Virus record (IMG/VR): IMGVR_UViG_3300037010_002844
Span: 64,001-128,000 of that record
Reading direction: 5' to 3' (one strand)
DNA: 64,000 bases
Source: a virus
In this document: piece after piece, positions 5,510 to 24,137 of the stretch
Layout of the letters: every line of letters begins with the position of its first letter
Position numbering within the stretch: position 1 is the stretch's first letter
Translations under genes and position numbers: made by a program
Notes under the pieces: generated by a model
What the model was told of the DNA's origin: nothing
Databases searched by the model: none
Seen by the model: the letters and a program-made list of their open reading frames with translations, nothing else

Positions 5510-6079
5510 TTAAACCGTGGGAATCGGCGTGTTCAGCTCGGGCGCATCTTGCACGTTTTCATAGTTCACGTAGAGCCCGTGACTGCCCACGCCCTTGCGC
5601 ACGTGTCCCAGGGACTCGCAGAAGACCACGTACTGCGCCAGCTGTTCCTCAACCTTCGACACCTCACCCACCTGGTCCTTGCCACGGTGCTTAAAGGTCA
5701 CACGTTGGCCCACAGAATATTTGGGAGTAACCCCATGGTGGTTTACCCATTCCGCGATCAGAGAATTGTGAGCCTTGATTCGCATGTAAGCTACATCCTC
5801 CAAGAGGTGGAGGAGCTCGTGATCAACCTCCCAGTAGTGAATGTTGTCCAACATCTTGGCAATGTCGTACGCATCGTCGTCGAACCTGACGGCACTTCTC
5901 AGGTCATCATGGATCTCCTTCAGGTAGGATTTCTCAAACTTGTCGGTGTCATCGCCCGCGGACTTCATCCACTGAATGACGCGTGGCATCAGGGCATCGA
6001 GCAGGCGCTCGAGCACCTCGGGATCCGTGCGATTCGGGCGAGGCGGCCAACCGCAGCCGAAGAGGACCTGCTGCTTCAT
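5510..6079 (-). CDS. Hypothetical protein.
   Basis: 189-aa ORF with an ATGA overlap to the upstream gene. No motif recognised. Confidence 0.5.
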   Translation of the reverse strand: MKQQVLFGCGWPPRPNRTDPEVLERLLDALMPRVIQWMKSAGDDTDKFEKSYLKEIHDDLRSAVRFDDDAYDIAKMLDNIHYWEVDHELLHLLEDVAYMRIKAHNSLIAEWVNHHGVTPKYSVGQRVTFKHRGKDQVGEVSKVEEQLAQYVVFCESLGHVRKGVGSHGLYVNYENVQDAPELNTPIPTV

Positions 6080-6267
6080 GGTTTGCTACTGTCGTAGAGT
6101 TCCTGTAGGGAGTTTGTGATCGTTTGGATGATTCCTGGTCGAATTCGGACCCAACACGGACTGCACAGCAACCCACGATTGGTGTGCCACTTTTGTGGGT
6201 CGAACGCCCAGTGAGGTGCCCCGCACTCAGGACAGGTGACCTTGACAATATCATCATTCGACGACAT
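6076..6267 (-). CDS. Small zinc-ribbon protein.
   Basis: CPECGAPHW...CSPCW (CxxC...CxxC). 63 aa. Confidence 0.5.
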   Translation of the reverse strand: MSSNDDIVKVTCPECGAPHWAFDPQKWHTNRGLLCSPCWVRIRPGIIQTITNSLQELYDSSKP

Positions 6268-6344
6268 GACATGAAAGTACTTTAGTACGCCCTCGGTTTA
6301 CACTTAGGCGTGCACCCGCACGATGGAGGGAATAATTACCATGC

Positions 6345-10067: not shown

Positions 10068-11198
10068 TTACGTGATTTCCCTCAACTTCCAGACCGTCGT
10101 CGACGCGCCAAAGTCGTCCCTCTTGACCTCGGCACAACACAGGATGAAGGGGTCAGGAAGCTCCTTGCCGCCCCAGACAGAAATCTTCGTGGCCTTGCCA
10201 GTGGGTCCAACCGCAAAGATTTGCACATATTCCTTGCCATTGCGGGTCTTCTTCTTGATGCCCGTCACCGGCTTGCCACCCTTCTTTGCAGCAACAGGGG
10301 CCGTGACAAACCAGACGACCGCCGTGTCACCGTGCTCCAGGTCGTCAATGCTATTGACGCCCTTCTTCTCCAAGGCAGCCAAGATTTCGATGTCAATCAT
10401 GGCGGTGACGTCCAAAGCACCGAAGACGTCGACCATATTTTGAGCACGTTCAGAAGACGACCAGTCCTCGATGTCAGCGTAGTCCCTGACCAACTGGTAG
10501 AAGTTCTTAAGGCCCTCGTGCGGGTCAGACTTCGGGTGTCGCTTGATCAACGCCCCGTGATCGATGTCGACCTCTTCGGTGACCTCGACGCCCTTGCGCT
10601 TCTTGGTCACGGTCTCCACGTGAGAACCGAAGAGGACCTCGTGCATGTGATGATAGTTGTTGAAGACCTTGCCTTCGCCCACGATGTCCATACTGCCGAA
10701 GGCACCGATCTTGACCAGGGCCTCCATCGCCTTCTTGTTGAACTTGCTGTGTTTCCACTCGAAGTTGTCATCCCACAGCAACTCCTCGATAGTGTTGTAG
10801 GGACGGTTGGCCATGATCTCTTCGACCGCCGAGTCGCCGACACCCTTGCAGGACGTCATCGACGGCATCAACTTCTTGCCGGGCAGCGCGGTCCACCCGA
10901 GCCCCGCCAGGTTGATGTCGATCGGGACGATCTGATAGCCCAAGGCCTTTACCTCGCTGAACGCCTTAGCACGTTGAGCAGGAGTGTGCGACATGCTTTC
11001 GAGATAGGCACACAGCCATTCCTCCTCGTGATATGTCATCAGCCAGGCGCACCAGAAGCTGTCAATGGCGTATGCCACTGCATGGCTGTTAGACGTCAGT
11101 ATCCCGTTAGCGAGATAGAACTGGTGATCCGGGTGATCGACTTCGAGGTCATAGGTCTGGTGTCGACCCACGGGTGTGATAGACTTGATGTTACTCAT
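10068..11198 (-). CDS. dnaE: DnaE (Pol III alpha) fragment 8 of 8: C-intein 7 plus the C-terminal extein.
   Basis: C-intein 7 at 11088-11198 is MSNIKSITPVGRHQTYDLEVDHPDHQFYLANGILTSN. The extein at 10071-11087 starts SHAVAYAIDSFWCAWLMTYHEEEW, which matches the DnaE KSHAAAYA helix onward. Confidence 0.85.
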   Translation of the reverse strand: MSNIKSITPVGRHQTYDLEVDHPDHQFYLANGILTSNSHAVAYAIDSFWCAWLMTYHEEEWLCAYLESMSHTPAQRAKAFSEVKALGYQIVPIDINLAGLGWTALPGKKLMPSMTSCKGVGDSAVEEIMANRPYNTIEELLWDDNFEWKHSKFNKKAMEALVKIGAFGSMDIVGEGKVFNNYHHMHEVLFGSHVETVTKKRKGVEVTEEVDIDHGALIKRHPKSDPHEGLKNFYQLVRDYADIEDWSSSERAQNMVDVFGALDVTAMIDIEILAALEKKGVNSIDDLEHGDTAVVWFVTAPVAAKKGGKPVTGIKKKTRNGKEYVQIFAVGPTGKATKISVWGGKELPDPFILCCAEVKRDDFGASTTVWKLREIT

Positions 11199-11419
11199 GT
11201 GAGCAGGTCCTTCAACAGGTCTTCGATCGCTCCTGCGTTCGGTTCATCAAGCATTGCTTTAGCATACTCTTCTTCAATGTACTCGTCAGTCGGCTGGAGT
11301 TCAACCTTCGTTTCGCTTTTGCGTCGGTAACGTGCCGCGGCCCGTAACAGTTCGATCGGACTCAGACCCATGCGTTGGGCAATGTCATTCAGTGCGATTT
11401 CAAACGGCGGTCTTTTCAT
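11195..11419 (-). CDS. Small hypothetical protein (possible HTH) inside the intein-7 gap.
   Basis: 74 aa, with IALNDIAQRMGLSPIELLRAAARY. Overlaps the neighbouring genes at both ends. Confidence 0.4.
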   Translation of the reverse strand: MKRPPFEIALNDIAQRMGLSPIELLRAAARYRRKSETKVELQPTDEYIEEEYAKAMLDEPNAGAIEDLLKDLLT

Positions 11420-12449
11420 ACGCTTTTCCTATCCGATGAACGCCAGGTCGAGGATCTTTCAGGATCTCAAAAAGCTTTTTCAAGCAATCAGGTTCGAAGC
11501 GACCGCCATCCTTGTATGAGAACTGATCGTAAGAAATTCGAATGAGTGTCCAATCATGTTTAGTGATGTAATCATCAAGCATTGCATCCATGCACTTCAC
11601 TCGTTCAAAATTATCCTCGCCTTTAATACGTGCATTAAAATGGATGATTCCATCAAATTCAACATAAATGTGTCTTGATCGATCGGCAATGTCAACTTGC
11701 TTTCTTTTAGATTTGTTTGGAAAAGCAACTGACTTGACGACCTGATTATGAACAAAATCATAACCTTCAACGTTTTTCAACAAATCAAACAACGCTAATT
11801 CCGGAATGCTATGCCAAATAGCATGTGCAGCTTTTGTGCACTTTTCGTAGAACTCATCGGGGTTCAACTCACGCCAACGGGCCAGGCGCTCAGCACGTGC
11901 CTTGAGTATCTCAGGCCGGGTTGACGTTAGTCTTGCAACGTCTGATGAACGTTTACGGGCTTCAGGTCGTCGATTAAGTTCTCCCATTAGTTCAGAGCGA
12001 CGTTTCCTCTCGCCCGGATTGCTCGTGATGGCCTCACTGACCGCACGGCCCATCTTTTCCTTGTAGGCAGTCAAATCATCACCGCGTGCCTTCGCTCGTT
12101 TGAGCCAGGCGAAATTCTGCCCACGATGCTTGAAACGCGCTGTCGAGACTTTCGATGTGATTGCGGCAGTCGGGTACGCTTTCAGGTATTCTTCTTTGCT
12201 CATACCATGCGTCCCCGACAAGTGCTTTGCCAGTGCCTTACCCGTGAAGCCACAGACTTGGCATGTGACACTCTCACTGTCACCGAGTATGAATCCTTGG
12301 CACCTAGCTTGGTGTTTTTCGTAGGCCTTCAGGTAGACGAAGAGCCTGCTACATCGGTCACAACGATGCTGAGGCCCCGTTCGGCAATCATCCACAGGGG
12401 CAACATCTCGTTTGTCTCCTTCGTCCTGAACTTGTGATCCCACGTGCAC
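11400..12449 (-). mobile_element. Free-standing homing-endonuclease gene in the intein-7 gap (MucR-like zinc finger plus a DUF559/Vsr-like PD-(D/E)XK domain).
   Basis: CQVCGFTGKALAKHLSGTHGMSKEEYLKAYP resembles the Ros/MucR finger. The C-terminal SIPELALFDLL...QVDIADRSRHIYVEFDGIIH resembles the DUF559/Vsr-like nuclease core. It lies between N-intein 7 and C-intein 7. Confidence 0.65.
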
Positions 12450-13030
12450 TTTACCTTCTCTCCGGTCACCAACTCCACTTCTACCAAGTCTAGCTCACCG
12501 TGGTCGTGTTTTGCAACAACAGGGACGAGGATGTTTTTACCTGAATTCTCATCACGAGACATGACCAGGTCGCCGGGTTCGATGTGTTGAAGCTGCTTTG
12601 TCTCTTTGAACGTGCCGTCTGAAAAAAAGGTATTTACTGGTTCCGAAAAGTACAAACTTTTATTGAAGCCGTAGCCCGCGAAGTACAGAATCTTGTCGTA
12701 GAGGTTGTTGGCCACCTTCTCGGTATAACCGTTGGCGATGCAACCCTTGACGAACCCGTCACGGGTCTCTTGGGCTGCCTTCTTTGCCGCCTCACCGCCC
12801 GAGATGCTGCGCTTCATGATTGCGCGACGGACCTCGTCACACTTGTCCTTCGGGAAGCCGGCAGCCTTCTCGGCGAGTTCCATCACCTGTTCCTGAAAAA
12901 TTATGCAGTTATGCACGAGAAGGCCATTTGCGAAGAAGTTGTTGTTCTTCTTGACCTGGATGTCGTACACAGGCTGTGCAGGAACACGCTTGATCGCACG
13001 GATCTTGACGGGAACTACGTCAGGCATCAC
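12329..13030 (-). CDS. dnaE: DnaE fragment 7: C-intein 6, extein, N-intein 7.
   Basis: C-intein 6 at 12908-13030 ends PVYDIQVKKNNNFFANGLLVHN. The extein at 12659-12907 is CIIFQEQVMELAE...DEVRRAIMKRS...ILYFAGYGFNK. N-intein 7 at 12332-12658 is SLYFSEPVNTFFSDG...CTWDHKF. Confidence 0.85.
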   Translation of the reverse strand: MMPDVVPVKIRAIKRVPAQPVYDIQVKKNNNFFANGLLVHNCIIFQEQVMELAEKAAGFPKDKCDEVRRAIMKRSISGGEAAKKAAQETRDGFVKGCIANGYTEKVANNLYDKILYFAGYGFNKSLYFSEPVNTFFSDGTFKETKQLQHIEPGDLVMSRDENSGKNILVPVVAKHDHGELDLVEVELVTGEKVKCTWDHKFRTKETNEMLPLWMIAERGLSIVVTDVAGSSST

Positions 13031-13344
13031 TTACGCTCCGTTTCACGATGAGTCTGACAAACAATGTGTAATGACATTGAGCGCGACAAAGCATCACTGC
13101 CTAGAACGACTCGGCAAGGGTTGAGATTTTCCCCCACATGACGCATCCATTCTTGCAAAGCGTTGATCAATCGTTGGGCTTCGTTGAAACCCTCATGCGA
13201 GGGTGGAAACTGACAGCAACCTACCAAATCTCTAGTCCCAGGATCATATGCAATGATTCGCAAATTCCCATGAACGTTCATCTCTAGCGTTAGAGATCCA
13301 TAAACATCGTCATCGATCTCGCTAGTGTAAAGATCTGCGCTCAT
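13027..13344 (-). CDS. Hypothetical protein (cargo ORF in the intein-6 gap).
   Basis: 105-aa ORF with an ATGA-type overlap to fragment 7. No motif recognised. Confidence 0.45.
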   Translation of the reverse strand: MSADLYTSEIDDDVYGSLTLEMNVHGNLRIIAYDPGTRDLVGCCQFPPSHEGFNEAQRLINALQEWMRHVGENLNPCRVVLGSDALSRSMSLHIVCQTHRETERK

Positions 13345-13345
13345 A

Positions 13346-13591
13346 TCATTTTTCTTTCATGTTCAATGATGATGCGCAGAGTTGGCACACTGGTCCATCA
13401 ACACTCAAAACACGTTGACCATGGTATTCGAGCTCCATATCATTTCCGACCTCTTCATAAGCTCGAAATGTGTCGAACCAGTCGGCATACGTGAGATCAT
13501 CACGCTTTCCAAATGCCGTATGTGACTTCATCGTGTTGATAAAGTTCTTGAACGACGTAAGCAACTCCTCTTCAAAATCATCAATCTTCAT
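13346..13591 (-). CDS. Hypothetical protein (cargo ORF in the intein-6 gap).
   Basis: 81-aa ORF starting MKIDDFEEELLTSF. No nuclease motif. Confidence 0.45.
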   Translation of the reverse strand: MKIDDFEEELLTSFKNFINTMKSHTAFGKRDDLTYADWFDTFRAYEEVGNDMELEYHGQRVLSVDGPVCQLCASSLNMKEK

Positions 13592-13662
13592 GTCTAAATT
13601 GTCCTCAATTTGAGGTGATAGTTCAAGGCATCAGACTCCCAGACGCGGTACACCGTGAAGCC

Positions 13663-13842
13663 TCAAGTTCTTGTGGCAAGCGTCCATAATTGATCAAGCC
13701 TAAATTGCTTCTTCATCGCAGGTGTTAGTTCATGCTTCGCTGGGTTACTGTGCCAATAGTCGCCGTCGTACTCGATGATGAGGTTGAGTGATGGCACGAC
13801 GAAGTAGCCTGGTTTCAGTACTTCATTCCCAAAATCTCGTCT
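13663..13842 (-). pseudogene. Remnant of a Vsr-like homing endonuclease.
   Basis: My translation of a start-less open stretch is RRDFGNEVLKPGYFVVPSLNLIIEYDGDYWHSNPAKHELTPAMKKQFRLDQLWTLATRT*. The IEYDGDYWHS core matches AIECNG(V/L)YWHSE of the two intact endonucleases at 15352 and 17837. Confidence 0.6.
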
Positions 13843-14414
13843 TCAGACGTCAGTTCACCTGCTTGCACCCAACCACGAGGCGTCATGACAAGGTGATCTT
13901 CAGTCAAAGACAAAGTTTCTCCACCCTCCAGCTCAACCTCGATGATGTCACGTACGCCGTTTGAGGCGACAGCGACAACTTCGTCCATCTCGACGGTCTT
14001 CGTCATTTCATTGTATGACGGAAGCTTAGTTCCCACCATTCCTTGTTCAACGATTTGTCTAATGGGAACCTCACCTTGCTCAGTAAGGATATGTGTGTCA
14101 CCCGTCAAACACGAGTATGTCTTCTTCAGGATGTCGTTGACGCGGTGATCGCCCCACTCCAACTCCTTGCCGTCATTCTTCGCCTCCAAGTACAGTCGAT
14201 CGACTTTGGCGGCCAAGGGACCCGGGCGATAGATGCTGGTCAGCGTCGCGATGTCGATGATGCTCTTGGGCTTGCCTTTGACAAAGAGTCGCTGAGCGCC
14301 CTGGCCCGTGCAATTGTGAACAACGACGTCGTTAGCGACGAAATTATGATGATTTCGCACCTCGATGTCGTAGACGTGGCGCTTACCCACGCTGCGTGAT
14401 GACACAAGCTTCAA
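13815..14414 (-). CDS. dnaE: DnaE fragment 6: C-intein 5, extein, N-intein 6.
   Basis: C-intein 5 at 14313-14414 is MKLVSSRSVGKRHVYDIEVRNHHNFVANDVVVHN. The extein at 14112-14312 is CTGQGAQ...LTSIYRPGPLAAK...ILKKTYS. N-intein 6 at 13818-14111 is CLTGDTHILTEQG...LTEDHLVMTPRGW. Confidence 0.85.
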   Translation of the reverse strand: MKLVSSRSVGKRHVYDIEVRNHHNFVANDVVVHNCTGQGAQRLFVKGKPKSIIDIATLTSIYRPGPLAAKVDRLYLEAKNDGKELEWGDHRVNDILKKTYSCLTGDTHILTEQGEVPIRQIVEQGMVGTKLPSYNEMTKTVEMDEVVAVASNGVRDIIEVELEGGETLSLTEDHLVMTPRGWVQAGELTSEDEILGMKY

Positions 14415-14772
14415 GCGTCGTCTCCTTCTTTTCTAGCAACTGTAGGTCATATCCACTGACAAGTGCACACTTGAGCGTCGGATGCAACGTTACGAATGCG
14501 TCAAACTTCTCCCTAGCATCATCACGCCACCAGCCCTTGACTTCCACGTACACCCGCTTAAAGAGCTCCAACGTCGGTCATTGACGATGGAAGATCATGT
14601 ACGCCTCTCTTGTGAGCTGGATCCTGATCTCCTCCTCGCTGAAGCCCTCGTCCATGCAATGACGCCAGTTGTCATACAGGTCGACGACGCCATTCTTTCC
14701 GTTCCCGTTGCCCGCTGAGTGCAGAAAGTACAAAGGGGCGCTACGATGAGCGGAGCGCGTCCGTACAATCAC
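14383..14772 (-). pseudogene. T7 endonuclease I-like homing endonuclease remnant with an in-frame TGA (intein-5 gap).
   Basis: ORFs 14578..14772 and 14383..14571 are in the same frame and are separated only by TGA 14578-14580. VYVEVKGWWRDDAREKFDAFVTLHPTL resembles T7 endonuclease I FVETKGLWESDDRKKHLLIREQHPEL as I recall it. The upstream PD motif is not preserved. Confidence 0.55.
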
Positions 14773-14856
14773 ATGTTGCGGAGTCGTGGGCCTGTTGCGT
14801 CTCTGTAAGGCGACATGGCCACGGTCGCGGCGAAACCTGCGACCAAAACGCCCGCC

Positions 14857-15333
14857 TCACGTCAATCCACGAGCTTCGTAACCACTGCTAGACCCAATCA
14901 ACTCGTCGTCTTCGGTTAGGTGCTGTGCCTCAACCCACCCGCGATTCTTCGTCAAGATGGGATGATCAGCGGTGCAGACAAGCTTCTTGCCGTCGTCGAA
15001 CACGAGCTCGATGCACTCCTTGGGTCCTTGGTCGTAAACGACGTCGACGACTGATGTGGTGAACTGCTGCTTGACTTCATCGAAGACCGTCACCTCGTCA
15101 CCGACATGGACGTCCTTGATCAACTTGTACGAGTCATCGCCCATCAGCACTGCCGTGTCCTGGTCGACGCACTGGAAGATGCCTGCCCACTTGCCTTTCT
15201 CGTAGACCTCGTAAGGTTTGGGATCGGTGAAATCAATGACGGCCGGGTGCATGTGCTGCTCGAACCAGGTCTTGATGTCATTGAATGATACCGCATTTGT
15301 ATGTGCGTCAACGTTAGCAACGACTTTTGCCAT
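14857..15333 (-). CDS. dnaE: DnaE fragment 5: degenerate C-intein stub, extein, N-intein 5.
   Basis: MAKVVANVDAHTN is a decayed block-G-like stub. The extein at 15172-15294 is AVSF...DPKPYEVYEKGKWAGIFQ. N-intein 5 at 14860-15171 is CVDQDTAVLMGDD...CTADHPILTKNRGWVEAQHLTEDDEL. Confidence 0.8.
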   Translation of the reverse strand: MAKVVANVDAHTNAVSFNDIKTWFEQHMHPAVIDFTDPKPYEVYEKGKWAGIFQCVDQDTAVLMGDDSYKLIKDVHVGDEVTVFDEVKQQFTTSVVDVVYDQGPKECIELVFDDGKKLVCTADHPILTKNRGWVEAQHLTEDDELIGSSSGYEARGLT

Positions 15334-15351
15334 GTCTTTGTAAAGGTACTT

Positions 15352-17151
15352 TCACAGGTCCATAACGTACACCGCGTTGGAGCAACCAAAGATCTTAAAA
15401 AGCCTGTGTTCCATCGCCATCTCTTCTTGTGATGCGATCCCCGGAATCGCCCTGACAGCAAATCTATCGATACGATTTTGTCCGTCCGTCCACCAAAACC
15501 TAGGCTGCGTCATGTGATCAAATCTAAAACCAGATAGTTCATACGCCCGGCCAGTGCCACCCAACCTCATGTCACGGTATGTGATCATTTTTTGGTAACC
15601 ATGCTCACGTGACCAATCCCTGGCAGCGTTGATCAACCGCGACATGCCTCCAACGACGATGGTATCGCGGGCCGTTGAAACCCGCGCCAATTCAATTGTC
15701 TTAGATCCCCACTTAGTCTGCTGGTGCGGTTTTCGCAATGTCAATGCACAAATAATGTTTCCAGCAATGTCCTCTAGCCAGAACGAATGCGACGAAGGAG
15801 TGTTTCCATCGAGGTGATTGTTCGCCATGAACTGAGCGGTGATGGCTGGACGACCGCTGCGAAGATGTAGCTTTCGTGCCATCACGCGAGTAGCAAGACC
15901 AAGCTTTACCCTGATCATGCTTTTGATGATGTTTTTCTTTACATCATGGTGCCATTCATCGTCGAAGATATGTAGCAACGACACACCACGCTCAAGAGCG
16001 CGAGTCGACTTGTCTTGGTGATACGATGGTGGAGTACCGGTCGCCTCACTGTGCCAATAGACACCGTTGCACTCGATGGCAATCCTTCCGTTACCTGACA
16101 CGATGTCCAGCTCATAAGGCGCGATTGACTGTCTGTCGTTGGCGATGGCGTTCGAATCGAGCTTGACGAAGAAATCGAACACCTCACGATGCCAGCGAGA
16201 GAAATTAGCCGGGTAGCACGTTGAACACACCTTTCCCTTGTAAAGGACGTTAAAGGGAACAATATCAGGTACGTTACAACTGACGCATGTCACATGCACC
16301 GGTGTTGAGTATCCAGCAAACTCAAATTTTTCGATGTTCCACCTCGACCGCAGTGCATCAACTCGCCGTTCGACCTCTTCGAGAGACAACCGAAAAGGAG
16401 AGTTAGTGCCGTTCTCGATAAGGCGTTTTCTAGTCTCGATGATCGAACGTTTGATATCTTCAGAATTAGCGTTCCGAGACCAATGATTCAAGCGAACGCC
16501 TTCGCCGATCCGTTCTGATCGCCGTTTGATCCTATCGTCAGTTTCTGACGTCTGACCGTGCTGCGTCCAGTGTTTTTCTACTTGCCATTTTTCAGTCAAT
16601 GCTCGAGAGATGTTATGCGCAGCTCTTGTGATAGATTCATTATTTTCTTTAGTTTGTCCTGTTCTCCAGTGCCCGTGTTTTTTGATGAAATCACGACAAC
16701 CTTGTGCGGCCCTTCGAACCGATTCAGACGTTGTTTCTGACAGCCCCTTGTTCCATGCAGGCAATGATTTTGATTTCCGGCTAAGCGCACCTCTTACTTG
16801 AGAGTTCTTCTTGCTACAAACTCCACAGAGACGTTCATATCCCGTTTGAAAGGTCATGAACTTGACCGGCCCTGAACACTGAACGCACGGTCCAGGGTGC
16901 TCTCGAAAAAGAAGGTACGCAGCCTCCGCATTGAGCCCGTGCTTTTTAAGGAGATGTGCGCGGAGCGAATTTAGGCTAGCTTTTCGCAATGGATCATTGC
17001 ACTGTGGGCACCTCGAAGGACACGATGTCATCGCCGGGCCCGAGCTCCCTCGCAAGGATGGTGCCCCTGTTGCTGGTGACGATTCGTTGGTCGCCGTAGA
17101 CGCCTCGTGTCGTTCCATCGTCGAGTTGGATCTCAAACCACCCTCTTTCAT
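15352..17151 (-). mobile_element. Free-standing homing-endonuclease gene (zinc finger, NUMOD3-like repeats, Vsr-like nuclease, conserved C-terminal domain) at junction 4.
   Basis: Contains CPQCNDPL...HLLKKH, WNKGLSETTSESV and TGQTKENNESI repeats, and YELDIVSGNGRIAIECNGVYWHSE. The C-terminus is YRDMRLGGTGRAYELSGFRF...FWWTD...IFGCSNAVYVMDL. It is a paralog of 17837..19570. The true start is probably an internal Met (17118 or 17031), because the track start overlaps fragment 4. Confidence 0.75.
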
Positions 17152-17851
17152 GTCGTTCCTTTTTGATGATGAGCTCGATGGCGCGCTCGATGAGCCGCAT
17201 CGTTTCTAGACCTAGGAGGTCGTACTTGATGAACTCTCCGATCTTCTCAAGGTGTTTATAATTTACGCCCTCGACCCAAGGTGACTGTGGCTCGCGGACG
17301 CCGGCCTTGCCTTTGGACGTCACCAAAGGCATCTTGTTGGGCAAATCGTCTGCAATCAGCACACCACCCGCGTGACGACCGAGACTACGATTCTGCTTGA
17401 AGAGGATCTTGATCGACTCGGCGACGACCGGGTACTTCTCAATGAAGCCGCGAAACGACGGGCTGACCGGCTGCTTACACTCTGGGCTACAGCCCTGGCA
17501 GATGGACTTCGACTCCGGGCCCTTAGGAGCCCTGCAGTGGAAGGCCATGGCCTCATCGTAGGTCAAGACGAACAGATTCTTGTCGTCGCCTTCCTTCATC
17601 GTCGCCTTACGGACCTCGTCCTCGACGGTCCGCGTGGCAGCGTTGGTCTCCTCGAATGGGATGCCGTAGAACTTGCCGATATCCTTTACAAGCGTTTTTA
17701 GTTTGAAACAGTTATAATTGCTGATGGGAACGACGTTTTCCCACCCAAAAAAGTTTCGAAGTTCATCAAGAACCTCATCTCGCCTGGCAAGATCGGTGTT
17801 GTGAACAACGACGCTCTTGTTGGACGCCAAAAATGAATGAACGACCATCAC
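16994..17851 (-). CDS. dnaE: DnaE fragment 4: very short C-intein 3, palm/fingers extein, degenerate N-intein remnant.
   Basis: Starts MVVHSFLASNKSVVVHN (17798-17848, ATG at 17848). The extein is TDLARRDEVLDELRNFFGWENVV...SLGRHAGGVLI...IKYDLLGLETMRLIERA. The tail at 16997-17140 is WFEIQLDDGTTRGVYGDQRIVTSNRGTILARELGPGDDIVSFEVPTVQ. Confidence 0.85.
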   Translation of the reverse strand: MMVVHSFLASNKSVVVHNTDLARRDEVLDELRNFFGWENVVPISNYNCFKLKTLVKDIGKFYGIPFEETNAATRTVEDEVRKATMKEGDDKNLFVLTYDEAMAFHCRAPKGPESKSICQGCSPECKQPVSPSFRGFIEKYPVVAESIKILFKQNRSLGRHAGGVLIADDLPNKMPLVTSKGKAGVREPQSPWVEGVNYKHLEKIGEFIKYDLLGLETMRLIERAIELIIKKERHERGWFEIQLDDGTTRGVYGDQRIVTSNRGTILARELGPGDDIVSFEVPTVQ

Positions 17852-19570
17852 ATGAATCCTAACTCAACTACAGTTGAATTTACATGCGCTCGTTGTGGTC
17901 GAAACCACGAAACGCTACGAGCATTGAAGATCCACGAGGCACGACACAGGCGAGAAGACGCCAGGCCTCCCAAACAGGTGTCAACTTACGCGTGTCCGTG
18001 GTGTGAGGCGTCATATGACAGCGGGCGTAAGTTGACATTGCACTGCACAAAAACGCACCAAAAATCACCCGTCGTTGTGTATGAAACAAGGTACCCAGGG
18101 TGCAGGAAGACGTGCATCGATTGTTGCGACTGGGTCAGGTTCATCGATCAAGAAAAAGGATACCCCGAACGGTGTCCACGTTGTAGCCGAAAACACGCAT
18201 ACGCGTCCAAGGGCACCTCGTCATGGAACAAAGGCCTGACGAAAGACAATGACGAACGCATGTCAGCCAGTGCTGCAAACATGCGAGCTCACTACAAGGA
18301 ACACGGTCACCACAACTCCGACAAGACAAAGGAAAACAACGAAAGCCTTAAACAAAAGGCGGCAAAAATCAGCGACAGCCTGCGGAGGTATTATGCAACG
18401 CACAGCGGCTGGTCACTTGGCCTGACAAAGGATACGTCTAGCATCATTGAATCTCGCAGTAAGAAGATCAGCGCTTCGTTGAAAGGACGATTCTTTAGCG
18501 ACGTAACGCTTGAAAAAATGCGCAAGGCAAAGTTGCTGACGCACGACGAGGTACAAAAACGCCTCAAAGAAAAGCAGCTTAAACTCATTGACGAATATGT
18601 CGATACTGTCACCAAAGCGCGCATCGAATGCACGATATGTTCAACAATATTTGAGCGTTGCGTTGGCGCAGTGTTCAACAACGAGGCCAAGTGTCCCACC
18701 TGCTTTCCGCCTTGGTCAGACAAAACGAGCAGGTGGCAACAGGACGTCTACGCATTTATCCAGACGCTGGCACCTGACGCAGTCCTTAGCGATCGTAAGA
18801 CGCTCGGCGGAATGGAGCTCGACATACTCATTCCATCGCGCATGTTTGCCATCGAGTGCAATGGCCTATACTGGCACAGCGAGGCCGCCAATAGATTTGA
18901 GCACGATCACGCGGAAAAGAAGAGATTGCTGTCCCTCAAAGCCGGCGTATCGCTTTTCACGTTATTTGAGGATGAGTGGCGCGACAAACGACCGATAATC
19001 GAAAGCATGTTGCGCCATCGCCTTGGGTTTTCTACCAAAGTCGATGCGCGTAAGTTGAAAGCAGAACGCTGCGAGCCCGAAGAAGTTCGAGAATTCATCA
19101 ATCAGTGCCACCTCGACGGTCACGTGAGGGCCCAATTTGCCGTGCGATTGGTAACCTCATCGGGCGAAATCGTAGGCGCCTGCAGCCTTAGGTGGGCACG
19201 AAATGGGGCAGACAGAACGACGATTGAGATCGCTCGCCTGTGCTTCAAGCTTGGCACACATGTACGAGGCGGGGTGTCAAAATTGCTATCAAAGGCAAAA
19301 GCTATAGCAAGAGAAAACAATGCAGCGAGGTTGATGTCTTACTCAGACAATCGCTTGGGAGGAAACGGTTATGCCACCTCAGGCATGAAGTTCAACGGTA
19401 CCACAGTCGCTCGCTTCTGGTGGACTGACTTCATGCATCGTTACGACAGGTTCAAGTACCGAGCCAACAAGAAGCAAGGTCTAACAGAAAAACAGGTAGC
19501 GGAGGCTGCCGGCGTTTATCGCATCTATGGCTGTAGCAACTCTCGCTACGTCTTAGACGTCACAGCGTGA
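17837..19570 (+). mobile_element. Homing-endonuclease gene on the opposite strand inside the intein-3 gap (C2H2-like finger, NUMOD3-like repeats, Vsr-like nuclease, conserved C-terminal domain).
   Basis: Contains CARCGRNHETLRALKIHEARH, then WNKGLTKDNDERM and SDKTKENNESL and GLTKDTSSIIESRSKKIS, then MELDILIPSRMFAIECNGLYWHSE. The C-terminus is YSDNRLGGNGYATSGMKF...FWWTD...IYGCSNSRYVLDV. Its ATG at 17837 overlaps, head to head, the ATG at 17848 of fragment 4. Confidence 0.8.
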
Positions 19571-19872
19571 CGCTAATGTCATCGTCAAACTTTGAGGACG
19601 CATTTTCTTTGAGCCAGAAGATGGCGTCAATTGTGCGCTCGTCGGCGTCGGCGTCATCGCACGACGTAGCCCCATAGTATGGGGGCCAAATCGTGCTCAA
19701 ACCCTTTAACGCGCAGTTTGACCTGACAATCTTGAAATTCAGGATTTTCTGCAGCTCTCGTCTGAGCTATTCTTTCCAGGCCAGACACTATCACATCATC
19801 TGCTCGGCAGAATCGCCGTTGTCTGTAAGCTGCACCGCATCAACGTTGCTCGGACACGGTCCCAACTCCAGC

Positions 19873-20610
19873 TCAAATTTCATAGTTGCGCTCGCTGTGG
19901 TCTGTTCTTCTCTTAGACGCGCACCAATCGCTGCAAAAATTGTCTCCTTCGCCACACGCAAGGAACGTGCCAGGAATGACGCCCATGCAATAACCGACGT
20001 CATGTGATGGATCACCTCCACTTAGAATGGACGTATTGAACGGTACCACGTGGAATCTGTGATCGTCTTCAACAGTCAGGTCGACGTATCTAGCGTTGGA
20101 AGAGCCCCAACCACCGTGCTCGATCGATACGACCTCAACGCTGCCGCATGATGCCATCAATTCATCTCCGACCTTAAGGTCGCGGCAGTACACGATGACG
20201 CCGTCAGCTCTGACAAATTTGTGACCGGGCACCACCAAAATGTGGCCCAACGTACCATCATTGGCCCTAACTCTGACCCAGACAGCGTCCTCGAATGGCC
20301 GCAAATTTCTAGCATAGGTCGCAGTTACTGCGTGTGGCATTCCATCGCCTCCCAGGACGACGTCGCCGACAATGATGTCAACAGCTCGCTTATGAGTGCC
20401 GTCTGTCATGACGACAAGATGGTCCTCGTGGACGCAGTCGATATCAGGAGCACCAGAGTTATGTGTCAGCACCCAATCGCTATCGTTGTTGGACACCCAA
20501 AACGTATGCTGGCCTTCGACCTCGATGTCGATGAGTTCTACACTTTCATCGACAACCTCGATAGCTTCAATTTTGGCCGTGCTTGCTGATGAGATGTTGG
20601 GTTCCTGCAT
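19873..20610 (-). CDS. dnaE: DnaE fragment 3: C-intein 2, 7-aa extein, long N-intein 3.
   Basis: C-intein 2 at 20458-20610 ends ELIDIEVEGQHTFWVSNNDSDWVLTHN. The extein SGAPDID is at 20437-20457. N-intein 3 runs down from 20436 as CVHEDHLVVMTDG...VVPGHKF...ARYVDLTVEDDHRF (to about 20053). About 60 unrelated codons follow. Confidence 0.8.
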   Translation of the reverse strand: MQEPNISSASTAKIEAIEVVDESVELIDIEVEGQHTFWVSNNDSDWVLTHNSGAPDIDCVHEDHLVVMTDGTHKRAVDIIVGDVVLGGDGMPHAVTATYARNLRPFEDAVWVRVRANDGTLGHILVVPGHKFVRADGVIVYCRDLKVGDELMASCGSVEVVSIEHGGWGSSNARYVDLTVEDDHRFHVVPFNTSILSGGDPSHDVGYCMGVIPGTFLACGEGDNFCSDWCASKRRTDHSERNYEI

Positions 20611-21532
20611 AGTCCCTGTGCTCTAGATTGGCAATCGTATGGTACAAACCTTGTCGACGAAGTTCACCATAGAAGTCATTCATGTACACGACGTCGATGC
20701 GCTGACCAGACGCCACAACGACTTCCCGTGAACGTGCGTTTGAGTTAAGCAACTTTGAGAAACGCGATTTGCCTTCTCGCACACCTTTCAACTCCACGTA
20801 TCGGTCCTCATCACTGAACCAAAAGTCTGGAGTGTAACACTTCTCTTTGCCATCGATGACAACATGGAAAGACCTATGTTCATAGAATGGCATCTTACCG
20901 AGGTGCAAGCAATATCTGTAGTAGTCGGCTTCGAACGAGCTCTTGAAGTACGGGCTGTTTAGGATGTCGGAACGAAAACACGAGCGTCCGTTCACATGTG
21001 AAGCAACCATATCACGTGACTGTGCCTCGCGGGTGCACCGTTTGGAACAGAACCGCGGCACGTAGCTCTTCTTGGTGACGATCGGTTCGCTACAAACTTC
21101 GCATACCAACGTGTGGCGGTCAAACCTCGATGCAGCGAAACATTTGGGTGAACAGAACCTGCGATTGACGTTCTTCGTTGAGAAAGTGCCTAGACACTGT
21201 ACACATGTCAGTGTACGGAGCTCATTCTTTGTCAGCGCTTTCGCAGTGTACTTGTGCCTGCACGCATTCGAACATAGTTTTCTGTTGTTGTGACACTTTG
21301 GAACGTAGAACTCATCGCCGTACTCGACGCACGTCTTCACAAGCCTCGAGGGCATGGGAGCGTGTGACATCAGCTTCCTGTGAGCGACGGCACACTCATC
21401 AGTGCAGTACGGGCGATGGAGCCTACTACCAGAACCCTTGCAGTTGGGCTCATAGTTGAACTGAAACATAATACCACAGTGTTTACACTGTTTCTCAATG
21501 ATGCTCATAGTGGTACGTGTACAGCTCGTCAC
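20567..21532 (-). mobile_element. Free-standing homing-endonuclease gene in the intein-2 gap (four CxxC...FCSxxC zinc modules plus a T7 endonuclease I-like PD-(D/E)XK domain).
   Basis: The repeats are CKHCG...RPYCTDEC, CVEYG...RKLCSNAC, CVQCL...RRFCSPKC and CEVCS...PRFCSKRC. The C-terminal KCYTPDFWFSDEDRYVELKGVREGKSRFSKL matches the T7 endo I YTPDF...FVETKG core as recalled. Confidence 0.7.
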
Positions 21533-21992
21533 TCGTCGACAGCTCAGATGTATACTTCTTCACAGGTTGTCCATCAGGACCCACTGTCAACCACACATGA
21601 TTTTCAGAACACGTGAACGTAGTACCATTCACCTTCACGCGGTACGTCTTCTCATGTTTTGTGGTCATGGTGAACGTAACTTTACGGTGTGAGCCATCCT
21701 GTGAGACAACGCTGTCACCGACTTTCACGTCTCGAAGCGCGGACGACGAACCATCTGACATCAATACCTTTGTGTCTGGCGACAGACACCTGTGAACGCT
21801 AAGGAATCGCGCGAAAGGCAGGTCCCAGAACAACGGGTCCAAGTCGGTGATGTATAGGACGTAGGCGACCAGAGAGCCACCGCCCGAATTGTGGACTGCA
21901 ATACCTTCCACGTTGTAAGTGTGGCTGTTTTCCACACACAGGTCTACGACCTCACCCTTATACGGTACGACAGTCTTACTTCTGAGCTTCAT
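21495..21992 (-). CDS. dnaE: DnaE fragment 2: C-intein 1, 33-aa extein, N-intein 2.
   Basis: C-intein 1 at 21888-21992 is [35 protein letters not shown]. The extein at 21789-21887 is [33 protein letters not shown], matching the DnaE GSAAGSLVAY..ITDIDP..FERFLNPER region. N-intein 2 at 21498-21788 is [13 protein letters not shown]...CSENHVW. Confidence 0.85.
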
Positions 21993-22076
21993 GATATGCG
22001 TTCGCTCTCTTCATGTAAGCCTTGAGATCCCTGTCTAATAGACATTTGACGAGGATCAGGTAAACTTAGTTGAGTT

Positions 22077-23762
22077 TCATTCAACCTCGATTAGGTCATC
22101 ATCTTCAGTCAAGTGTTGTGCTTCAATCCACCCACGATTCTTCGTCAGAAACTTATGCTCCTTGGTGCACCTGATCTTCTTACCGTCATCAAACTCGAGT
22201 TCTAGCAGCTCCTCATCAACCTGATACCTGAAGATCTGAGTCACCATCTGATCAACACCATATGCATCCTTGATAACGTCGCCCACCTTGATGGTGCCAA
22301 TGGGAGCATGCATGCCGTCAGCCATTAGAACCCGCGTCTCAGGAACGAAACAACCGCGGGCTGGGCCGGTAAGGCACACATTGCGTGCCAGCTCCATGAT
22401 CTTCTGGTAGGAAATGAAGTAGTCAGAGTTTTTCATCACCTTAATGACGCCGAGTTCCTCCTTGAGGCGCGCGATATACTCTGGCTTGTCTTGAAGACCA
22501 CGCTTCACCATGCCCACCTTACAAAGCGAGATGAGGTGATTGAACGAGGTCGTGCCTTCGGGCACCAACAACCTCGTCGGAAACTTGGGCGAACGATCGG
22601 GTGGAATCTCCCCGATGACACTGTGTGCGATATCGTGAGTCCGCTCAATGGCGTCACAGACGACTTCATCGTCATACCAGTCGGTGCCTTCCTTGGAGCG
22701 CTGGTACTCATCCCACATCTGTTGGGCGTTCTTCGGATAGAGCTCACACTTCAGCTCATCCTTCGACTTCGGAATCGCGTCAGGATTGATCTCCTGGTAG
22801 TTCATCCAACCCAGGCGCTTGTAGAGCTCACGGTCCTTCCAACGATCGGGATTATAGTAGTGAGCATCGCCGGTGACGATCAGCTGCTTGTTGAGCCCAT
22901 TGCGACGAGCGAACTCCAGGATCGCGCGGTTGACGAGGTTCTGCGCCGGTAGGCGATTGAACTGCAGCTCGAGGAAGTAGTTTCCTTCGCCGACTGCATC
23001 GACCATGTGCTGGTAGGTATTGCCCACCGCGACAACGCATTTCTCGAGCAGCACAGGGTCACTGAGCAACCGTGCGTCGAGCTCGTCAAACTTGTACTGT
23101 TGGATTTCCTGGAATATGGAGTACGCCGGCATGCCGCCGATACAAGCGCTGCTGACGATGATGTCGCCGCCTTTGGCTGCCTCTTTGAGGACAGCATGGT
23201 CAATGCGCGGGAACTTGTAGAAGCCCTTCAAGAATCCCTTCGAACATGCTGCGAAGATCGCCAACAGGCCCTTCTGGTTCTTGGGCAGAATGACTAGGTG
23301 ATGCCGTCGGTTGACGGGATTGAAGTGTTTGGTCGATTTGGACTCTTCCTCGTTTTCGACAGTCAAGGCGTTGGACATCTCAATGTCCTCAGTCTCATCA
23401 TTTTCATCGATGGTGGCGATGATCTTGGTCTGCAGCTTTTCCTGCTCCTTAGCAAGCTTGGCCGCAACCCTCCTGTCTCCCTTCGCCTGCTCTGCGAGTT
23501 CGACGTCCTTCTTCCATTGCTCCAGGTCGGGATGGTAGTACGCCTCGACGCCGGGAATGTACTTGAACGACTTTCCCTTATTGGCCTTGGCCCACTCCTC
23601 GACCCACAGTTGAGCGTGGGCATAGGAGTTCATGTTCCCGTGCTCGGTGATGGCATGGCCATCGAGCCCGTTCTCCATGCACCACTTGAAGTGTTCATCG
23701 GGATAGCCCAAACCATCGAAGGGCGCATTACGAGAAGCCCGTGTGGTTGTGCAAACCGACAA
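22077..23762 (-). CDS. dnaE: DnaE fragment 1: PHP and N-terminal half, plus N-intein 1.
   Basis: Contains FDGLGYPDEHFKWCMENGLDGHAITEHGNMNSYAHAQ (PHP) and ends ...CLTGPARG, followed by N-intein 1 at 22080-22352 (CFVPETRVLMADG...CTKEHKFLTKNRGWIEAQHLTEDDDLIEVE*). The track start (TTG 23762) is an artefact. The real N-terminus is in another frame (see 23728..23820). Confidence 0.85.
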   Translation of the reverse strand: MSVCTTTRASRNAPFDGLGYPDEHFKWCMENGLDGHAITEHGNMNSYAHAQLWVEEWAKANKGKSFKYIPGVEAYYHPDLEQWKKDVELAEQAKGDRRVAAKLAKEQEKLQTKIIATIDENDETEDIEMSNALTVENEEESKSTKHFNPVNRRHHLVILPKNQKGLLAIFAACSKGFLKGFYKFPRIDHAVLKEAAKGGDIIVSSACIGGMPAYSIFQEIQQYKFDELDARLLSDPVLLEKCVVAVGNTYQHMVDAVGEGNYFLELQFNRLPAQNLVNRAILEFARRNGLNKQLIVTGDAHYYNPDRWKDRELYKRLGWMNYQEINPDAIPKSKDELKCELYPKNAQQMWDEYQRSKEGTDWYDDEVVCDAIERTHDIAHSVIGEIPPDRSPKFPTRLLVPEGTTSFNHLISLCKVGMVKRGLQDKPEYIARLKEELGVIKVMKNSDYFISYQKIMELARNVCLTGPARGCFVPETRVLMADGMHAPIGTIKVGDVIKDAYGVDQMVTQIFRYQVDEELLELEFDDGKKIRCTKEHKFLTKNRGWIEAQHLTEDDDLIEVE

Positions 23763-23820
23763 ATCGTCGGGGCACTCGCACCGAGCTTCCCTTGGCGTCC
23801 TCCTTTCCTTGCTGCGTCAT
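23728..23820 (-). other. dnaE: True 5' end of dnaE (PHP motif I), out of frame with the rest of fragment 1.
   Basis: ATG 23820-23818 (ATGA overlap with the upstream stop) gives MTQQGKEDAKGSSVRVPRRFVGLHNHTGFS, then TAA at 23730-23728. Removing one base in tcg-t-aat would read ...GFSNAPFDGLGYPDEH, the canonical PHP HxH...DG continuation. Confidence 0.7.
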
Positions 23821-24137
23821 TTACCTTCCCACCTTACCTTGTCACGGTACTGTAGACCCAATTGACGGTACTGGACACCGTCAATGACCACGATAGTCAC
23901 TTCAGGAAACTTGATTCGCATCAGTGCAAGCTGATAGCACGCCTTGTCAGACCACCTTCCCTTAATTTCGTAGTACACGCTTTCATCGTGAACGAAAATC
24001 TGGTGTGTACCAAGCCGGCCATGTCGGCGATCTGCGGCAACGTGGCCATACCAATGGGTATCAGCACGCGGAGCCACTTGGGCAGCTTGTTCCAGGTGGG
24101 CTTCAGCTGGGTGACGAGCTATGAAACAACGATGCAA
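23817..24137 (-). CDS. Small T7 endonuclease I-like protein, probably a degenerate homing-endonuclease remnant.
   Basis: THQIFVHDESVYYEIKGRWSDKACYQLALMRIKFPEVTIVVIDG parallels YTPDF...FVETKGLWESDDRKK...HPELDIRIVF. The PD aspartate position is not conserved. Confidence 0.45.
   Translation of the reverse strand: MHRCFIARHPAEAHLEQAAQVAPRADTHWYGHVAADRRHGRLGTHQIFVHDESVYYEIKGRWSDKACYQLALMRIKFPEVTIVVIDGVQYRQLGLQYRDKVRWEGK

Follow-up and report, generated by a model that had tools for sequence, protein, structure and literature searches.

When two split inteins in one gene end almost alike, has one been copied from the other within that gene, and do the copies endanger it, as DNA through recombination and as protein through mis-pairing? 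This question is raised by a DnaE-type DNA polymerase III (Pol III) alpha gene in the IMG/VR virus record IMGVR_UViG_3300037010_002844, of which we analysed positions 64,001 to 128,000 (the window, 64,000 nucleotides (nt) numbered here from its first letter). On the minus strand, at 10068–23762, the gene is split into eight open reading frames (ORFs), A to H, and the N-terminal halves of the inteins at sites 1 and 5 (N1 and N5) share a nearly identical C-terminal stretch. The original prediction read this as intragenic spread by duplication or ectopic homing. The sequence comparisons suggest instead that the shared end is the hallmark of a widespread known phage intein family, NrdJ-1-like, and no proof of copying within the gene, because the same tail occurs in inteins of an SPL-type radical-SAM protein (SPL), NrdA, NrdJ and ribonucleotide reductase (RNR) hosts of other phages. 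N1 and N5 are probably two separate, old, site-specific lineages of this family of phage split inteins, which has NrdJ-1 as a representative and is typical of 'fractured genes', each at its own conserved DnaE motif (GPxRG/SGG and G[IV]FQ/CTG; a slash marks the splice junction).

Two N-inteins and a shared tail

The features that carry the comparison are as follows; L001 is a related viral contig whose unbroken DnaE served as the reference for splice junctions.

10068–23762, minus strand: the fractured dnaE gene as a whole, with eight ORFs (A–H), six split inteins (sites 1, 2, 3, 5, 6 and 7) and one non-splicing break (junction 4)
22080–22352, minus strand: N-intein 1 (91 amino acids, aa), the C terminus of DnaE fragment A, at GPARG/SGGGS; Cys1, block B CTKEH, junction flush against L001
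22089–22145, minus strand: N1 tail TKNRGWIEAQHLTEDDDLI, the family-signature module; 17/19 residues identical to the N5 tail and 16/19 to SPL and RNR inteins
14860–15171, minus strand: N-intein 5 (104 aa), on DnaE fragment E, at GIFQ/CTGQGA; Cys1, block B CTADH, junction flush
14896–14952, minus strand: N5 tail TKNRGWVEAQHLTEDDELI; 18/19 residues identical to SPL inteins, 17/19 to NrdA inteins and 17/19 to N1

Each N-half begins with its nucleophile directly after the extein motif (CFVPETR after GPARG in N1, CVDQDTA after GIFQ in N5) and has the T-x-x-H of block B (CTKEH and CTADH); Pfam matches, to Intein_splicing/Hint for N1 and of Hint type for N5, are sub-threshold. Both peptides quoted in the original prediction lie in the host ORFs A (22077–23762) and E (14857–15333), both on the minus strand, and its outer coordinates are the first codon of N1 (22352) and the last codon of N5 (14860). 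Same-site orthologues exist for both: for N1 in L005, L006, L015, L038 and P0092, and also in P0017–P0021; for N5 in P0002 (82% identical), P0003 (70%), P0022 and L006 (L and P numbers are our handles for related sequences).

N1 and N5 align with a Smith–Waterman score of 202 (44/88 identical, z = 35), reached by 0/300 shuffles, and the next-best pair of N-halves in the gene scores 120, which leaves N1–N5 as the outlying pair. Overall identity is 49–50% and is unevenly spread, from 30% over residues 1–50 to 29/38 (76%) over residues 51–88, with 18 of the last 20 identical. The similar ends that had been reported are therefore real, with differences at 9 of the 38 positions. By module, identity is 30% in the head, 57% in block B and 89% in the tail; FDDG[KR]K is common to block B of both, and the shared 19-residue tail reads TKNRGW[IV]EAQHLTEDD[DE]LI.

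Protein searches seeded with intein parts returned, besides the same-site orthologues of N1 and N5, N-inteins of SPL that are only 38–40% identical to N5 overall yet carry the exact TKNRGWVEAQHLTEDDEL. A degenerate DNA pattern for KNRGW[VI]EAQHL led to 26 viral loci, whose hosts are DnaE site 1, two kinds of NrdA, NrdJ, another class II RNR and SPL. In N-inteins of the unrelated hosts (SPL, two NrdA types, NrdJ and class II RNR, all on other viral contigs) the tail is 84–95% identical; taken module by module, the alignment gives SPL and NrdA heads just 12–25% identity to the head of N5. Among solved structures, the best phmmer match in PDB for both inteins is NrdJ-1 (8ubs), with E-values of 1.2e-13 for N5 plus C5 and 8.1e-10 for N1 plus C1 and with the tail inside the alignment. 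The N1 tail aligns with NrdJ-1 TKNRGYVRADELTDDDELV, and the features of NrdJ-1 membership, a TKNRG-aromatic turn and an acidic ..LT.DD[DE]L strand, are both present. The placing of N1 and N5 in one intein family by the original prediction is supported.

What N1 and N5 have in common would thus be the most constrained module of the family, block B plus the 19-residue tail, and the tail may do two jobs. Under the 'capture and collapse' model of split DnaE inteins, an acidic strand in the N-half pairs with the basic C-half head, and the acidic strand of the tail could pair with the basic C-intein head in the same way. The second job concerns the aromatic residue of the turn; by our numbering of the NrdJ-1 sequence, consistent with the alignment, we take Tyr89 to be the residue after TKNRG, the Trp position in TKNRGW. 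NrdJ-1 has two 'accelerator' residues in its N-half, Tyr83 and Tyr89; Tyr89 packs on Tyr83 and on the penultimate His of the C-half, beside the catalytic Asn, and an aromatic side chain at this position is needed for resolution of the branched intermediate (PMC13123727). The aromatic residue of the tail (Trp here, Tyr89 in NrdJ-1) may likewise pack against the His-Asn end of the C-intein.

Nearest relatives and the DNA record

An exhaustive phmmer search with N5 over 1.84 billion representatives gave 2984 hits at E <= 1e-3, with 237 at E <= 1e-10. After the same-site orthologues, the best full-length matches are inteins ending ResIII/DEAD_2 helicase fragments, 50–52% identical to N5; P0038 reaches 52% overall, 42% in the head and 71% in block B, and N1 is lower on each count (49%, 30% and 57%). 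Same-site orthologues aside, N1 and N5 are therefore each other's closest relatives only one way round: N5 is the closest for N1, and N1 is not the closest for N5. In neighbour-joining trees the DnaE1 clade has 80% bootstrap support, DnaE5 77–85% and DnaE6 93–100%; the window's N1 and N5 pair in 0/200 replicates, and DnaE1 and DnaE5 form an exclusive clade in 5–22 of 200. Within one genome N1 and N5 are 48–49% identical, and comparison across genomes gives the same range (the window's N5 against N1 of L005, L006 and L015). Pairwise identity and phylogeny of the N and C halves had been proposed as the check on intragenic spread, and they speak against it: N5 is nearer to the helicase inteins than to N1, the two never pair, and the C-halves C1 and C5 are 38% identical. 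The tail in SPL, NrdA, NrdJ and RNR inteins, the rarity of the exclusive clade and the equal identity within and between genomes oppose it as well.

Several points weigh on the other side, against the view of N1 and N5 as separate lineages. The canonical tail is not universal, TKNRGW occurring in 14 and T.NRG[WYF] in 41 entries of an unbiased top-150 list, and the loci that place the tail in other hosts came from a motif-directed DNA pattern and show occurrence, not frequency. The DnaE5 orthologues P0028, P0050 and P0084 have closer heads but diverged tails, and such incongruence between head and tail could reflect old module exchange between inteins; alignments of heads, about 50 divergent residues, are themselves uncertain. 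Finally, the nearest non-allelic relatives of N1 are the DnaE5 inteins, at 49%, followed at 45% by a class II RNR intein and a contiguous mini-intein, a small margin that comes largely from the tail.

Because of this proximity and the shared FDDG[KR]K, an ancient transfer between the two dnaE sites keeps some probability. One intein would have moved to a second dnaE site before the sampled phages diverged, and the two would have drifted since, except in the constrained tail; the joint presence of inteins 1 and 5 in the window, L006 and P0070 fits such an event, as does the membership of intein 6 and of the junction-4 relic of the same gene in the broader family. We nevertheless judge it unlikely, because both the head and block B of N5 are nearer to helicase inteins than to N1, the exclusive DnaE1 and DnaE5 clade is so seldom recovered, and the C-halves have no special relationship.

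The DNA of the two N-halves offers an independent view of their history through one pair of repeats.

14903–15020: 118-nt direct repeat, copy 1, covering block B and tail of N5 (repeat search, family D1)
22096–22213: 118-nt direct repeat, copy 2, covering block B and tail of N1; 71% identical to copy 1 (family D1)

An independent repeat search found this to be the longest direct repeat in the 14-kb locus, and the DNA similarity described in the original prediction is genuine: the quoted 39-mers are 32/39 identical, at ~14920–14958 and 22113–22151, 8–15 nt from where they had been placed. The longest exact DNA word common to N1 and N5 has 13 nt. Under minimal homology requirements, a 118-nt repeat that is 71% identical with exact matches of <=13 nt is a poor substrate for homologous recombination, and the repeat is no realistic recombination substrate. 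Where residues are identical, N1 and N5 use the same codon at 15/29 positions in the similar block and at 8/18 in the tail; where tail residues agree, the codon agrees too in a fraction of 0.28–0.5 across host groups and 0.43 among DnaE1 orthologues. Because synonymous sites vary freely, the tail is conserved as protein, by selection on the protein rather than by recent DNA copying, and N1 and N5 bear no trace of recent duplication or gene conversion. With synonymous sites largely randomised, the 'recombination problem' that had been attached to the pair falls away.

The same data bear on concerted evolution, in which the tail of N5 (or N1) was recently overwritten by gene conversion from its co-resident copy, with the repeat as a live recombination substrate. 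The window's N5 tail has more in common with the N1 tail (17/19) than with some DnaE5 orthologue tails (L006 14/18, P0028 9/18), it has K-N residues that N5 of L006 is without, and the phage encodes a UvsX-like recombinase. However, the same tail occurs in N5 orthologues of other genomes (P0002, P0022 and P0056) and in SPL and NrdA inteins, and N1 and N5 are no more alike within a genome than between genomes. We rejected recent conversion on codon usage and the 13-nt maximum exact match, and the synonymous-site data bring it close to refuted.

A constraint on the DNA itself is very improbable too. Here the tail would serve the downstream free-standing homing endonuclease as its recognition or insertion site, or would hitch-hike with it by co-conversion; endonuclease genes or remnants do lie directly 3′ of the tail, and on the N side similarity climbs towards the split point. 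A role as endonuclease target was rejected because the synonymous positions of the tail are free to vary, between and within host groups, and a role as passenger of one endonuclease family because canonical tails precede genes of unrelated types (PD-(D/E)xK, GIY-YIG and HNH-like) or none (NrdJ of L016, and SPL). The heads of the C-inteins, moreover, are not comparably conserved.

Partner choice and the break at junction 4

If the tails are so alike, what would keep the halves of inteins 1 and 5 apart as proteins? Their C-halves are the following.

21888–21992, minus strand: C-intein 1 (35 aa), the start of fragment B, ending AVHN/S; 89–91% identical to C1 of L005 and L006, 38% to C5
14313–14414, minus strand: C-intein 5 (34 aa), from a TTG start, ending VVHN/C; AAGGAG lies 8 nt upstream of the TTG

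Both have the His-Asn end, followed at +1 by Ser (C1) or Cys (C5). Their 38% identity is at background, and C5 is nearer to the C-inteins of DnaE6 and NrdA (41–44%), so that the C-halves are not related in the way the N-halves are. The observation that both C-fragments begin MKL.S stands only if C5 starts at the TTG, and the MKL start is not kept even among C5 orthologues. Conservation of the C-intein heads together with the tail was rejected, the heads having just a loose basic [KR][LI].[ST] pattern.

The N-halves of inteins 1, 5 and 6 are acidic (net −9, −13 and −13) and their C-heads basic (+3, +4 and +3). Charge polarity was rejected as a source of orthogonality, since these three inteins share it and only intein 2 differs. 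Because charge cannot distinguish them, any partner specificity must lie in the diverged heads and C-halves; the likely partner-choice parts would be the N-terminal half of the N-intein and the C-intein, both of which have diverged between inteins 1 and 5.

Alleles of the cyanobacterial split DnaE intein cross-react freely. Split inteins of different families do not cross-react, for lack of sequence identity (PMC13123727), which leaves pairs within a family, such as 1 and 5, as the remaining question. Judged from their sequences, cross-pairing among inteins 1, 5 and 6 is plausible, mis-pairing would scramble the product as the original prediction stated, and selection for orthogonality would be a reasonable inference; in the tail, no sequence signature of such selection was found. 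Inteins 1 and 5 occur together in the window, L006 and P0070, hence in no fewer than three divergent lineages. Because they recur together in L006 and in the divergent P0070 lineage their co-residence is stable, and any cross-talk between them is evidently tolerated. The orthogonality question is a legitimate one, and generic to the family.

The break between fragments D and E adds a further member to the family.

16997–17155, minus strand: junction-4 relic, the C terminus of fragment D (53 residues), matching the second half of an N-intein of the N1/N5 family
15289–15333, minus strand: head of fragment E, 15 aa, MAKVVANVDAHTNAV, without counterpart in unbroken DnaE (alignment of split against unbroken)

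The relic scores 22.1 bits against positions 49–92 of the family hidden Markov model, where the maximum of 300 shuffles is 6.4. It is without Cys1 and the whole first half and has YGDQR in place of TxxH, and it keeps T-S-N-R-G, the T-x-N-R-G of the family. Its sequence thus marks it as a truncated and catalytically dead second half of an N-intein of the N1/N5 family, in line with the original assignment, and the 15-aa head of fragment E may be the remnant of a C-intein head. Relic-like tails of ~45 aa are present in L002, L005, L008–10 and L043, where the next fragment has a head of 11–15 aa (M[AS]K[IV].S...), and the non-splicing break recurs in at least five phage lineages. The genes within it vary: the window has the 599-aa endonuclease gene, L005 and L008 have GIY-YIG-like ORFs, L043 has a 341-aa ORF in which an E.NG..WH (Vsr-like) motif occurs, and L002 has next to nothing there. 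The ratio of nonsynonymous to synonymous substitution (dN/dS) between the window and L002 is ~0.3 for the relic and ~0.07 for the adjacent extein, both rough values with dS near saturation. Because it is conserved in several lineages and because of this ratio, the relic is maintained as protein. A search for homologues with the relic as seed gave no candidates.

In the favoured reading each N-half would splice only with its own C-half, and the eight ORFs would give two polypeptides, one of ~777 aa (724 aa from exteins A–D and the 53-aa relic) and one of ~543 aa (528 aa from exteins E–H and the 15-aa head), which would then associate non-covalently at junction 4. A part for the relic as the association module, or clamp, is speculation. 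A bolder proposal, which we offer tentatively and think rather doubtful, is that inteins 1, 5 and 6 cross-associate through a shared docking module of acidic tail and basic head, that assembly relies on later discrimination by the N-heads and C-halves during folding or catalysis, and that the relic is the same module serving as a non-covalent clamp of two half-polymerases, a split intein exapted for heterodimerisation.

The fractured gene, its gaps and its kin

The gaps between intein halves, and their surroundings, hold the following endonuclease genes and remnants.

20567–21532, minus strand: 321-aa free-standing endonuclease between N2 and C2 (PHROG families 'HNH endonuclease' and 'endonuclease'; PDF...VELKG motif)
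17837–19570, plus strand: 577-aa homing endonuclease between N3 and C3, on the opposite strand (PHROG 3339 'homing endonuclease', E = 3.5e-59)
15352–17151, minus strand: 599-aa homing endonuclease at junction 4, a paralogue of the 577-aa gene (PHROG 3339, E = 1e-59)
11400–12449, minus strand: 349-aa endonuclease-like gene between N7 and C7 (PHROG 559), with a homologue at the same place in L006
21955–22047, minus strand: endonuclease remnant in the N1–C1 gap and the start of ORF B, the last 31 codons (tblastn 61% identity, E = 5.6e-7)
14383–14571, minus strand: 62-aa ORF in the N5–C5 gap, a C-terminal endonuclease remnant (BLASTP 54% over 50 aa, E = 1e-13)

A free-standing endonuclease between the halves, the feature of fractured genes, is thus present for inteins 2, 3 and 7, and inteins 1 and 5 have only C-terminal remnants, in gaps of only 84 bp (N1–C1) and 442 bp (N5–C5). 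The parent of the first remnant is a 336-aa PD-(D/E)xK-type endonuclease that lies between N1 and C1 in L005 and L006, and the source of the second a PD-(D/E)xK endonuclease downstream of N5 in P0056; in the relatives L005, L006, L015 and P0056 the same gaps hold intact endonuclease genes. The site-5 intein of P0033 is a contiguous mini-intein. The gaps of inteins 1 and 5 fit the published model in which a mini-intein is invaded and split by an endonuclease gene whose subsequent loss leaves the split intein fixed.

The window's N5 has a C terminus of its own. At 14860–14895 on the minus strand it ends ...DELIGSSSGYEARGLT, where orthologues end directly ...DEL[MV].V; these 12 residues, absent from the orthologues, stand in place of the usual terminal strand residues. 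The extension may be the scar of the deletion that removed the endonuclease gene.

The endonuclease genes have repeats and domains of their own. The 599-aa and 577-aa genes, which lie in opposite orientation, have in common a 40-nt, 85% inverted repeat (16043–16082 and 18846–18885), and a Mom-like or GNAT-like region lies at the C terminus of both products; a 31-nt, 87% direct repeat ties the 599-aa gene to an endonuclease remnant in the F–G gap (13747–13777). Just upstream of fragment A, a 106-aa ORF (23817–24137, minus strand) contains ...VYYEIKGRWSDKACYQLALMRIKFPEVTIVVIDG..., which by eye resembles the YVEVKGWW...IV C-terminal region of the PD-(D/E)xK endonucleases of the gaps, and it may be another endonuclease remnant.

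The gene in which these inteins lie can be reassembled on paper. Pfam identifies PHP and DNA_pol3_alpha (NTPase) in fragment A, DNA_pol3_alpha in B and D and the finger domain in F and G, with Hint or intein-splicing matches at the fragment ends. Complete split inteins occupy six of the breaks: in each, residue 1 is Cys or Ser, block B is present, and the C-half finishes with HN or SN before a Ser, Thr or Cys. No catalytic residues are present at the seventh, junction 4, which separates D from E. The product spliced in silico has 1252 aa and is colinear with the unbroken DnaE of L001 at 74% identity, gapless across all six intein junctions, so that splicing restores uninterrupted conserved host sequence. 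At three sites the +1 nucleophile follows the presence of the intein, as seen by comparing the window with intein-less L001: R/S against R/K at site 2, Q/C against Q/L at site 5 and K/S against K/A at site 7. At sites 1, 3 and 6 a Ser, Thr or Cys is found at +1 already in the unbroken gene.

Neighbouring genes encode a DnaB-like helicase, the UvsX-like recombinase and an RNR, and IMG/VR viral contigs as long as 369 kb carry related DnaE genes (ORF E on a 309-kb contig); because of these replication neighbours and large contigs, the locus is to be seen as the replication module of a large phage. Among cultured phages, tblastn with fragment A turned up no close relative, just DnaE sequences with identities of <=25%. 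Across 13 related viral loci DnaE is unbroken in most, and inteins are sporadic and always at the same sites: intein 1 in L005, L006 and L015, intein 5 in L006, intein 6 in L003 and L012, and intein 7 in L006. L015 (IMGVR_UViG_3300015608_001846, a 150-kb contig) has the N1 closest to that of the window among the sampled genomes (84%); its intein 1 comes with an intact 341-aa endonuclease, and it also has intein 2 and a homologue of the 321-aa endonuclease. Multiply fractured DnaE is carried by other divergent phages as well, found in the N5 phmmer search (P0033, P0056, P0070 and P0141). In P0070, a middle DnaE fragment, a site-1 C-intein stands at the start and a site-5 N-intein, with an endonuclease fused to it in frame, at the end; P0141 extends from the C-intein of an upstream site to a site-1 N-intein; and P0033 combines its site-5 mini-intein with a site-7 N-intein fused to an endonuclease-like region.

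Two further inteins of the window lie outside the comparison of N1 and N5. Intein 3 interrupts the catalytic PDID/TD motif, and the place of its split seems atypical: N3 (19876–20436, minus strand) has 187 aa with blocks A and B, an F-like block (YVDLTVEDDHRF) and then a conserved Cys-rich tail (C..11..CGEG.N.C...C), and C3 (17798–17851, minus strand) has only 17–18 aa (MVVHSFLASNKSVVVHN/T). Engineered split inteins with so short a C-piece exist; we know of no natural one. The arrangement is kept at 48% identity in L043 (~6001–6570 and 8679–8735), where the pieces are 2.1 kb apart with kinase-like and methyltransferase-like ORFs, and no endonuclease, between them. The RNR gene (1213 aa; 44405–48046, minus strand) contains an insertion of ~400 aa that starts TNP/CITGETLIAVADG and apparently ends ...VIIASEQ/CGEITL. 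By its sequence the insertion resembles a contiguous intein whose middle domain is rich in zinc fingers and whose last residue is Gln where Asn is usual; because it is without the TKNRGW tail, it does not belong to the N1/N5 family.

How does this gene compare with known systems? Several inteins in one host protein are known, for example from Trichodesmium DnaE and RIR1, and non-allelic inteins of one host are generally not closest relatives. As in the window, several inteins lie in one polypeptide and each must splice correctly; those inteins are mostly contiguous and splice in cis with no choice of partner, whereas in the window six pairs meet in trans. The cyanobacterial split DnaE inteins (Npu/Ssp), sequences of whose type are among the weaker PDB matches, likewise have a Pol III alpha host, a natural split, an acidic N-half and a basic C-half, but their insertion site is another one, their halves lie at distant loci without an endonuclease, and there is a single intein per gene. 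NrdJ-1 (from a metagenomic fractured RNR gene; PDB 8UBS/9OMB) shares with inteins 1 and 5 the pattern CT.[DE]H...TKNRG[WY]....[DE]LT.DD[DE]L, the acidic N-half, the basic C-head and the natural split. It differs in host gene and insertion site, in having Tyr where inteins 1 and 5 have Trp, and in its low identity outside the tail, with an unalignable head; NrdJ-1 is characterised biochemically, inteins 1 and 5 are known from sequence.

Dassa et al. 2009 described the metagenomic 'fractured genes' to which NrdJ-1 belongs; DnaE already figured among their hosts, with three DnaE loci, one with part of a second intein, and with very similar allelic inteins (PMC2677866). Like those loci, the window has a replication-enzyme gene interrupted by split inteins whose halves flank free-standing endonuclease genes (in that study Vsr-like or GIY-YIG; PMC2677866); unlike them, it has six split inteins and a seventh, non-splicing break, and its inteins 1 and 5 keep only endonuclease remnants. 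The locus is an extreme new example, with eight pieces and six split inteins, of this known class. Literature searches on multiply split DnaE in jumbo phages or on non-allelic intein spread returned nothing specific, which is not proof that nothing has been published.

Intragenic duplication with a hazard of recombination and mis-pairing would, if true, be a neat case of a selfish element; the evidence points instead to the conserved core of a known family. The 19-residue tail is a candidate functional module, because it is invariant in inteins that are otherwise 12–30% identical, with a link to branched-intermediate resolution that comes from one study of NrdJ-1. The gene brings together up to six split inteins, of which three belong to one family and have near-identical docking tails; it provides a natural test set for partner specificity, and where that specificity resides matters for the engineering of orthogonal split inteins. 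Finally, a polymerase in eight pieces indicates the extent to which inteins and endonucleases can fracture a gene in a large phage.

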